Of a stretch of 17,779 nt of DNA, positions 15,944 to 17,579 are shown in pieces. The notes under the pieces were generated by a model. That model ran no database searches and was not told the DNA's origin. It saw only the letters and a program-made list of their open reading frames with translations. The translations under genes were made by a program, and so were the position numbers. The stretch lies in the IMG/VR virus record IMGVR_UViG_2698536449_000001, one strand, 5' to 3'. This stretch comes from a virus (lineage: Duplodnaviria; Heunggongvirae; Uroviricota; Caudoviricetes). The number at the start of each line of letters is the position of its first letter. Positions within the stretch are counted from its first letter, which is position 1.

Positions 15944-15969
<26 letters not shown>

Positions 15970-16489
15970 TCAGCAACCCCGGTATCAGTTCATCCAGCGC
16001 GGCTGCTTTGTTCATGGCTTTGATGATATCCCGTTTCAGGAAATCAACATGTCGGTTTTCCAGTTCCGGAAAACGCCGCTGCACCGACAGGGGGATCCCG
16101 TCGAGAATACTGGCAATTTCACCTGCGATCCGCGACAGCACGAAAGTACAGAATGCGGTTTCCACCACTTCAGCGGAGTCTCTGGCATTTTTCAGCTCCT
16201 GTGCGTCGGCCTGCGCACGCGTAAGTCGATGGCGTTCGTACTCAATAGTCCCTGGCTGGAGATCTGTCTCGCTGGCCTGCCGCAGTTCTTCAACTTCCCG
16301 GCGCAGCTTTTCGTTCTCAATTTCAGCATCCCTTTCGGCATACCATCTTATAACGGCGGCAGAGTCATAAAGCACCTCATTACCCTTGCCACCGCCTCGC
16401 AGAACGGGCATTCCCTGTTCCTGCCAGTTCTGAATGGTACGGATACTCGCACCGAAAATGTCAGCCAGCTGCTTTTTGTTGACTTCCAT
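15944..16489 (-). CDS. Nu1: Terminase small subunit Nu1
   Basis: 181-aa ORF (MEVNKKQLADIFGASIRTIQNWQEQGMPVLRGGGKGNEVLYDSAAV...) matching lambda gpNu1, with an N-terminal helix-turn-helix. Lies immediately downstream of cos on the minus strand. Confidence 0.95.
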
Positions 16490-16666: not shown

Positions 16667-16678
16667 CGCCTTCCGCCC
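16667..16678 (-). other. cosN cohesive-end 12-mer (minus strand GGGCGGAAGGCG), a variant of lambda GGGCGGCGACCT
   Basis: Flanks are identical to lambda as I remember it: CGACAGGTTACG on the right-end side and CGCGGGTTTTCGCTATTTATG on the Nu1 side. Only the second hexamer of the 12-mer differs. Confidence 0.75.
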
Positions 16679-16702
16679 CGTAACCTGTCGGATCGCCGGA
16701 AA

Positions 16703-16709
16703 GGACCCG
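16703..16709 (-). other. Candidate cosQ (minus strand CGGGTCC), about 25-30 bp from cosN
   Basis: Minus strand reads TTTGCGGGTCCTTTCCGG here. Placement is from my memory of lambda cosQ; exact boundaries are unverified. Confidence 0.4.
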
Positions 16710-16714
16710 CAAAA

Positions 16715-16729
16715 TGATAATAATTATCA
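16715..16729. promoter_or_regulatory. Perfect 7-1-7 palindrome TGATAATAATTATCA; Fur-box-like (function unproven)
   Basis: Directly visible. Matches the Fur box core TGATAATnATTATCA and about 16/19 of the 19-bp consensus GATAATGATAATCATTATC. Lies between cosQ and the divergently oriented right-end genes. Confidence 0.35.
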
Positions 16730-16877
16730 TCTACATGTCACAACGTGCATCTACGCCATCAAACCACGTCAAATAATCAATTATGACGCAGGTATCGTAT
16801 TAATTGATCTGCATCAACTTAACGTAAAAACAACTTCAGACAATACAAATCAGCGACACTGAATACAGGGCAACCTC

Positions 16878-17111
16878 ATGTCAACGAAGAACAGAACCCG
16901 CAGAACAACAACCCGCAACATCCGCTTTCCTAACCAAATGATTGAACAAATTAACATCGCTCTTGTTCAAAAAGGGTCCGGGAATTTCTCAGCCTGGGTC
17001 ATTGAAGCCTGCCGCCGGAGACTGTGCTCAGAAAAAAGAGTTTCGCCTGAAGCAAACAAAGAAAAGAGTGACATTACTGAATTGCTCAGAAAACAGGTTA
17101 GACCAGATTGA
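16878..17111 (+). CDS. Small basic ribbon-helix-helix-like protein; resembles YlcI/YnfO (DUF3950) proteins of E. coli lambdoid prophages
   Basis: 77-aa ORF with an Arg/Thr-rich N-terminus (MSTKNRTRRTTTRNIRFP), then a short beta-strand-like RNIRFP and two predicted helices (NQMIEQINIALVQKG, NFSAWVIEACRRRL). Weak AGGG Shine-Dalgarno 7 nt upstream. Family assignment is from memory. Confidence 0.6.
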   Translation: MSTKNRTRRTTTRNIRFPNQMIEQINIALVQKGSGNFSAWVIEACRRRLCSEKRVSPEANKEKSDITELLRKQVRPD

Positions 17112-17168
17112 AGCAATTTAGATAATCGTGCAGACTACGCCCCCTCATATCACATGGAAGGTACTACA

Positions 17169-17579
17169 ATGGCTCAGGTTGCCATTTTTAAACAAATATT
17201 CGATAAAGTGCGAAATAATTTAAACTATCACTGGTTTTATTCTGAACTAAAACGTCACAATGTCTCACATTACATTTACTATTTAGCCACAGAGAATATT
17301 CATCTTGTTCTTGAAAACGATAATACGGTTTTAATAAAAGGACAGGGTAAGGTTGTAAATGTAAGATTTTCAAAAAATAAATGCCTTATAGAAGCCACCT
17401 TAAAAGGATTCAAATCAGGAGAGTTATCATTTTACGAATACAGGAAAAATCTTGCTACAGCAGGGGTTTTCAGATGGATTACAAATATCCACGAAAACAA
17501 AAGGTATTACTATACCTTTGATAATTCATTACTCTTTACTGAGAACATACAGAACACTACACAAATATTTCCGCACTAA
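17169..17579 (+). CDS. Hypothetical AT-rich accessory protein (136 aa from the second ATG); possibly YbcV/YdfO-like (DUF1398), unverified
   Basis: ORF-track entry 17154..17579. The ATG at 17169 has a GGAAGG Shine-Dalgarno 7 nt upstream, so I prefer it. Roughly one-third G+C by eye, against clearly GC-richer structural genes. Same strand as, and 42-57 bp downstream of, the RHH-like gene. Confidence 0.5.

Follow-up and report, generated by a model that had tools for sequence, protein, structure and literature searches.

A probable Fur operator next to the cosQ packaging signal of a lambda-like prophage and its linkage to lambda-type cos sites

The stretch of DNA analysed here, referred to as the window, comprises 17,779 nucleotides of a Caudoviricetes virus (IMG/VR record IMGVR_UViG_2698536449_000001) and represents a lambda-like prophage whose orientation is reversed relative to the lambda map. 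In the non-coding gap that separates its terminase genes from its right-end accessory genes, a palindrome resembling the operator core of the host ferric uptake regulator Fur is found. This raises the question of whether the palindrome is a Fur-binding site and, if it is, whether Fur would act there on the neighbouring genes or on the packaging site that lies beside it. The initial annotation had put forward both possibilities, namely an iron-responsive control of the right-end accessory genes, or a packaging or architectural site (part of cosQ, or IHF-like) unrelated to Fur. The features of the region are collected in Table 1.

Table 1. Features of the right-end region of the window.
Feature	Position	Strand	Basis or remark
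Terminase small subunit (Nu1 / NohA / NohD homologue)	15944..16489	-	Pfam Phage_Nu1 2e-101
cosN cohesive-end segment, 12 nt	16667..16678		Lambda and 434 right-end alignment
cosQ, AGGACCC (reverse complement of GGGTCCT), packaging-termination signal	16702..16708	-	Aligned to cosQ as annotated in phage 434
Extended conserved block AAA-TGATAAT-A-ATTATCA-TCTACAT	16712..16736		Information profile, 24 flank contexts
Promoter-like site, sigma-70 type, GTGACA-16-TATCAT, 10/12, toward cos and Nu1	16714..16741	-	Consensus scan only
Core 7-1-7 palindrome TGATAATAATTATCA, Fur box core	16715..16729		Exact match
Perfect FNR-consensus box TTGATCTGCATCAA	16804..16817		Exact match; 61 bp upstream of the ylcI-like start codon
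77-aa YlcI/YnfO-family gene, homologue of the lambda right-end ORF	16878..17111	+	Pfam DUF3950 2e-20; NCBIfam YlcI_YnfO_N
PdhR-like box AACAGGTTAGACCAGAT	17092-17108		Resembles the Qin ynfO-ydfO PdhR SELEX site AAcaGGTcagACCAgaT
141-aa DUF1398 gene, YbcV/YdfO family	17154..17579	+	Pfam DUF1398 3e-43

The palindrome and its surroundings

The arms of the palindrome form a perfect 7-1-7 inverted repeat in which the two strands disagree solely at the centre base. The pattern TGATAATNATTATCA is matched exactly in the window at this position only, with 14 of the 14 specified 7-1-7 positions in agreement, while matches to the 15-mer with two mismatches or fewer are expected 0.01 times in the shuffled window. 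The classical 19-bp Fur consensus GATAATGATAATCATTATC is likewise matched at 16 of 19 positions (16710-16728; 0.01 expected), and the extended block in which the palindrome is embedded reads as a putative series of Fur hexamers that could accommodate overlapping dimers. The palindrome starts 6 bp outside cosQ and 36 bp from the cosN nick, that is, from the mature right end at 16679, with which the last base of the linear lambda and phage 434 records aligns, and it ends 149 bp before the start codon of the plus-strand YlcI/YnfO-family gene. The initial annotation had described a perfect Fur-core palindrome about 40 bp from cosN and about 150 bp upstream of this gene, and had supposed a near-identical element in lambda; at the homologous place, lambda carries the one-base variant TGATAATGATTATCA (lambda bp 48452-48466). 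The exact 15-mer, the alignment to 434 and lambda and the measured gene distances therefore bear out both the observation and its geometry.

The cohesive end of the window reads GGGCGGAAGGCG on the minus strand and that of lambda reads GGGCGGCGACCT, the two differing only at five of the six positions 7-12, and the same variant was also observed in another IMG/VR locus (L080). Base pairs 7-12 of the cohesive end are reported to vary freely (PMC4669245).

On the other side of the palindrome, the 77-aa gene aligns to ynfO and ylcI of K-12. It had been labelled RHH-like, and it falls instead into the DUF3950 / YlcI-YnfO family; the single-sequence AlphaFold model of its product has a pLDDT of 55, too low for its fold to be judged, and no homologue of solved structure was found. 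The FNR box upstream of it is invariant across 78 fetched loci and follows ylcI rather than cos, remaining beside ylcI where an insertion sequence parts that gene from cos. In one IMG/VR locus (L025), a transposase-like ORF about 100-430 nt after cosQ lies between the Fur palindrome and ylcI, and ylcI together with its FNR box is shifted about 420 bp further from cos. An FNR ChIP-seq peak has been reported in the corresponding intergenic region of Qin, where Fur was proposed to mask FNR activation (Myers et al. 2013, PMC3688515); the summit of this peak (1634625) falls on the Fur site rather than on the FNR box, from which it is about 89 bp away. A PdhR site between ynfO and ydfO was described by Anzai et al. 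(PMC7660256), who found ybcV to be 10-fold lower in a pdhR mutant, and upstream of the DUF1398 gene in the window the PdhR-like box overlaps a promoter-like sequence, TAGACC-16-GATAAT (17099-17126). An imperfect inverted repeat was also observed in the interval from the Fur array to the FNR box, with ATCAATTATGACG at 16776-16788 and CGTATTAATTGAT at 16796-16808 (13 nt, 85% complementary, 7-nt gap); the block that contains it does not vary among K-12, 434 and lambda.

Orthologous Fur sites and published binding data

Alignment revealed that the 15-mer and its flanks are identical in the window, in DLP12 (nohD-ylcI) and in phage 434, while Qin (nohA-ynfO) and lambda carry a centre-G variant that is one base off the window. 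In all of them the centre of the palindrome lies 233 bp from the start codon of the Nu1/noh gene. Chen et al. (2007, PMC2189734) picked nohA as a predicted Fur-controlled promoter and reported clusters of 3-4 overlapping Fur sites within 25-28 bp at both nohA (22.3 bits at -233, and a further site 6 bp from it) and nohB (25.3 bits, ranked third strongest in the K-12 genome, predicted only). In the same work an oligonucleotide from nohA was gel-shifted by 150 nM purified Fur, and the nohA region is stated there to lie on a Sau3A fragment that Vassinova and Kozyrev (2000) had selected in vivo for Fur binding. The Qin coordinates agree with the published nohA distance (1634624 - 1634391 = 233), and the DLP12 copy was equated with nohB through sequence identity, because the distance of '-133' given in the paper uses an older gene start. 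The palindromes of DLP12 and Qin appear to be these published nohB and nohA sites. Since the window copy is identical or orthologous to sites that have been tested, iron-loaded Fur would be expected to bind it, and the block at 16712-16736 is very probably a genuine Fur-binding site. As such the palindrome is already known, being of the nohA/nohB type, and as a Fur site the window copy adds nothing to the E. coli Fur literature.

Occupancy of a related copy in vivo was found in CFT073, where a Fur ChIP-exo peak obtained under iron-replete conditions (1424699-1424711; Gao et al. 2023, PMC10164565) overlaps CGAGAATAATTATCA, a sequence with two mismatches relative to the window that is located directly past the cosQ of a different lambda-like prophage. 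Log2 ratios of fur deletion to wild type in CFT073 are +2.33 and +2.95 for the divergent gene pair and +1.34 and +2.13 for terminase-operon genes (PMC10164565). The flanking genes are hence 2.5- to 8-fold higher in the fur deletion, with the divergent pair 5- to 8-fold higher, a rise that could in part represent prophage induction in the fur mutant. In this prophage (1423700-1425700) an unrelated 106-aa secreted-looking ORF and a 117-aa ORF replace ylcI and ydfO, and a gene for a TonB-family protein is found some 700 bp away from the Fur site.

The K-12 data gave a different picture. In MG1655, neither K-12 copy has an entry in the Fur ChIP-exo peak lists, and in W3110 the DLP12 copy has none, possibly because the near-identical repeat copies may have hidden reads. 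In the MG1655 fur deletion, nohD, nohQ, ydfO and ybcV were unchanged at very low counts, and in the W3110 fur deletion ybcV, ybcW, ylcI, nohD, ynfO and ydfO decreased, also at low counts; ydfO is absent from the Fur iModulon and is a member of an iModulon of horizontally acquired genes. Two Fur ChIP-exo peaks of Sakai, P27 and P60 (PMC10164565), were considered as candidate peaks at cos and discarded, as both lie inside tail tape-measure genes; these belong to prophages Sp3 and Sp10 of E. coli O157 Sakai and the peaks are not at promoters. The search of published Fur ChIP data at lambdoid right ends that the initial annotation had suggested was rewarded in CFT073 and drew a blank at the MG1655 copies and at the DLP12 copy of W3110. 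Its reading of the palindrome as a Fur box was upheld by the CFT073 peak, by the gel shift of the Qin copy and, as recounted by Chen et al., by the in vivo selection of that copy.

Distribution of the array among lambda-type cos sites

The cosQ context GGATCNNCGGAAAGGACCC was scanned for in IMG/VR and in one genome per species of GTDB, and the motif was scored as present where a sequence with three mismatches or fewer to TGATAATNATTATCA occurred within 14 nt after cosQ, true cos sites being those with the cosN flank present. The motif was detected in 124 of 143 lambda-type cos sites, as against 1 of 85 chance matches to the cosQ pattern, the single one being a truncated lambda contig. This negative control consists of matches from the GTDB scan, which are mostly chance matches or lambda contamination. 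Contigs of about 48.4-48.5 kb with a lambda right end were noticed in several non-enteric assemblies (L137, L186 and others; among them Pseudomonas sp. 30_B and Shewanella canadensis); contamination by a lambda spike-in is the most likely source of these contigs, whose coverage, where stated, is low.

With directly fetched records included, 148 cos sites were sorted into 29 right-hand flank contexts, of which 24 carry the motif (about 20 unrelated flanks after sub-variants are merged) and five do not. The sites that lack it amount to 19 of the 143 (13%) and fall into these five contexts; the main flank type among them had no match in the phage collection. Across the motif-bearing contexts the conserved block takes the form AAA-TGATAAT-r-ATTATCA-nTTrCAT, extending from -10 to +14 around the centre, and beyond about +14/+15 the sequence is random, while the spacer between palindrome and cosQ varies both in sequence and in length (3-8 nt). 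Anchoring the profile alignment on the best match makes the core scores too high, but the near-zero chance-match control shows the enrichment to be real. In phi80 a perfect palindrome was found 5 nt after cosQ, and in N15 the sequence after cosQ is CGATAATAGTTATCG; in both phages the neighbouring gene, as annotated, reads toward cos and terminates at the palindrome. The phi80 record (44309-46150) also contains, about 0.9 kb from cos, a 76-aa product (ABF05_gp51) that is annotated as a 'putative Fur-regulated protein'.

Because the motif is kept across unrelated flanks, while the FNR box is found only with ylcI, the Fur array is part of the cos module rather than of the accessory genes. No report of such cos-linked inheritance was found in the literature covered. 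Selection is clearly at work on Fur binding next to cosQ, since the motif is frequent at true cos sites and nearly absent from chance matches, and since both arms are conserved while the spacer and the outer flank are not. Two ordinary explanations fit this pattern, namely that in lysogens the array silences stray transcription entering cos and the terminase genes, or that it controls whichever cargo gene sits alongside.

Candidate roles of the array and comparison with known systems

The only promoter-like site detected next to the palindrome points leftward, toward cos and Nu1, and its -10 element and spacer are overlapped by the Fur array; on the plus strand, a consensus scan detected no promoter between 16700 and 16878. 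As this leftward site stands alone and the accessory genes have candidate control elements of their own, occlusion of the leftward promoter by Fur is the best-supported reading. The palindrome would form the core of a high-affinity operator of about 25 bp (16712-16736) for host Fur, and under iron-replete conditions Fur, probably as at least two overlapping dimers, would cover the -10 element and spacer of the promoter-like site (16741-16714). Transcription from beside cos toward cos and Nu1/A would thereby be off in the lysogen, its release would depend on low iron and perhaps also on FNR, and any effect on the plus-strand ylcI-like and DUF1398 genes would probably be weak or indirect. A Fur operator beside cosQ that represses leftward transcription into cos and the terminase genes is, on balance, the probable explanation overall, though repression of the leftward cos-proximal promoter as its specific output is proposed more tentatively, at somewhat less than even confidence. 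Only roughly half of the remaining flank contexts contain an equivalent of the leftward site (≥9/12); many, CFT073, phi80 and N15 among them, do not conserve it, and the site is good only in flanks of the window/434/DLP12 type. A promoter co-conserved with the palindrome was looked for across the flank contexts and none was found.

Among the alternatives, the one raised in the initial annotation is that Fur at the palindrome represses a promoter of the ylcI-like and DUF1398 genes, so that they are expressed only when iron is scarce. The CFT073 prophage speaks for it, in that its divergent genes rise in the fur deletion beside a Fur ChIP-exo peak, as do the Fur masking of FNR activation proposed for Qin and the perfect FNR box upstream of ylcI. 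However, 156 bp separate the palindrome centre from the ylcI start codon and about 89 bp separate it from the FNR box, distances too large for simple occlusion; any plausible ylcI start site is about 130 bp off the palindrome, and no plus-strand promoter is apparent in between. Nor are ynfO, ydfO, ylcI and ybcV derepressed in the K-12 fur deletions, where MG1655 shows no change and W3110 a decrease; moreover, in K-12 the DUF1398 gene is under separate, PdhR-linked control, the FNR box follows ylcI whereas the Fur box follows cos, and in phi80 and N15 the adjacent gene reads toward cos. Direct iron control of the right-end genes is accordingly unsupported in this arrangement, and we regard it as unlikely. 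Still less probable is a part for Fur as a host packaging factor upstream of cosQ, for example as a roadblock that slows terminase, or as a device that ties maturation to iron. The array is inherited with cos, a few nucleotides from cosQ, in about 20 unrelated flanks (lambda, 434, phi80, N15, DLP12, Qin and the CFT073 prophage among them) and without a co-conserved promoter. Packaging runs toward cos from the palindrome side, and there is room for a role of bound Fur because the motor would reach the palindrome immediately before cosQ; IHF at I1 provides a precedent for a host DNA-binding protein in cos (PMC4669245). Against this, cosQ is only 7 bp, termination is described as requiring cosQ, cosN and I2 only, and I2 is located in the cosN-cosB interval, with cosN separating it from the palindrome (PMC4669245), while the motif is missing from five flank contexts and its spacing to cosQ is variable. 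No link between Fur and cosN or cosQ was found in the literature covered, the cosQ mutagenesis studies of Cue and Feiss (1993) and Wieczorek and Feiss (2001) being outside that coverage. That the array is kept beside cosQ because bound Fur joins in packaging, or couples packaging to iron, would therefore be a rather improbable reading; if it were true, Fur would be a host factor for lambda-type packaging termination, for example a speed bump that aids recognition of cosQ and cosN.

The remaining readings are more doubtful again. One would make the palindrome the operator of the phage's own YlcI/YnfO-like DNA-binding protein, or else an extension of cosQ or an IHF site. The palindrome does lie in a divergent intergenic region near a small, possibly ribbon-helix-helix protein, and it is close to cosQ. 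Nevertheless, an operator for the YlcI-like protein was rejected because the palindrome persists where ylcI is absent, as in the CFT073 prophage, phi80, N15 and many others, and the low-confidence model leaves the ribbon-helix-helix fold unconfirmed. As to the suggestion in the initial annotation that the palindrome is part of cosQ or IHF-like, the palindrome starts beyond the end of cosQ at 16708, a cos subsite at fixed spacing in all family members does not fit the varying spacer and the contexts without palindrome, the IHF consensus WATCAANNNNTTR has no match anywhere in the window, and I2 is beyond cosN. This family of readings is the least probable of all. Scarcely more credible is a Fur sink, in which the many palindrome copies on replicating phage DNA would titrate Fur and derepress host iron uptake during lytic growth. 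Selections for Fur-binding fragments work by a multicopy cloned site that titrates Fur off a chromosomal reporter, but Fur is abundant, and a sink leaves the fixed position next to cosQ unexplained. The Qin fragment, by the account of Chen et al., came from such a selection in vivo.

Repression of leftward transcription into cos and the terminase genes remains the preferred reading, and what gives the locus its interest is that a strong operator for a host iron regulator lies within a few bases of the termination signal in lambda, 434, phi80, N15 and most lambda-type cos sites. This cos-linked conservation contrasts with the weak and inconsistent transcriptional effects that have been published. 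It would point either to the silencing of transcription into cos and the terminase genes or to an unrecognised link between Fur and cos, both of which are testable in lambda.

Compared with known systems, the palindrome shares with classical Fur operators such as fepDGC-entS and fepB-entC a GATAAT-type hexamer array with overlapping dimer sites, a divergent intergenic position and an overlap with a -10 element, which here is a putative one. Unlike them, it has no iron-related flanking genes and is tied to a packaging site, and Fur-dependent transcription at the palindrome is inconsistent between strains. In Stx1 phages, a Fur box in the stx1 promoter makes a phage-borne gene iron-responsive; that box is likewise a host Fur site on a lambdoid phage, but it is part of a defined cargo gene's promoter, whereas the palindrome lies beside cos and is tied to no particular gene. 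With cosQ the palindrome has in common adjacency, co-inheritance and the side from which the packaging motor arrives, yet it is a separate element, with a variable spacer, contexts in which it is missing, and a different sequence and symmetry. The IHF site I1 in cosB is also a site for a host DNA-binding protein in the cos region, although the likeness is a functional analogy only, since I1 is across cosN from the palindrome, is known to act in packaging initiation, and involves another protein and motif. The closest counterparts are the nohA (Qin) and nohB-nohD (DLP12) sites, which occupy the same position 6 bp past cosQ at the shared distance from the terminase small-subunit start and from which nothing of substance differs. 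The window thus holds another copy of this site in a different and apparently more complete lambda-like prophage, one whose cohesive end departs from that of lambda within base pairs 7-12.
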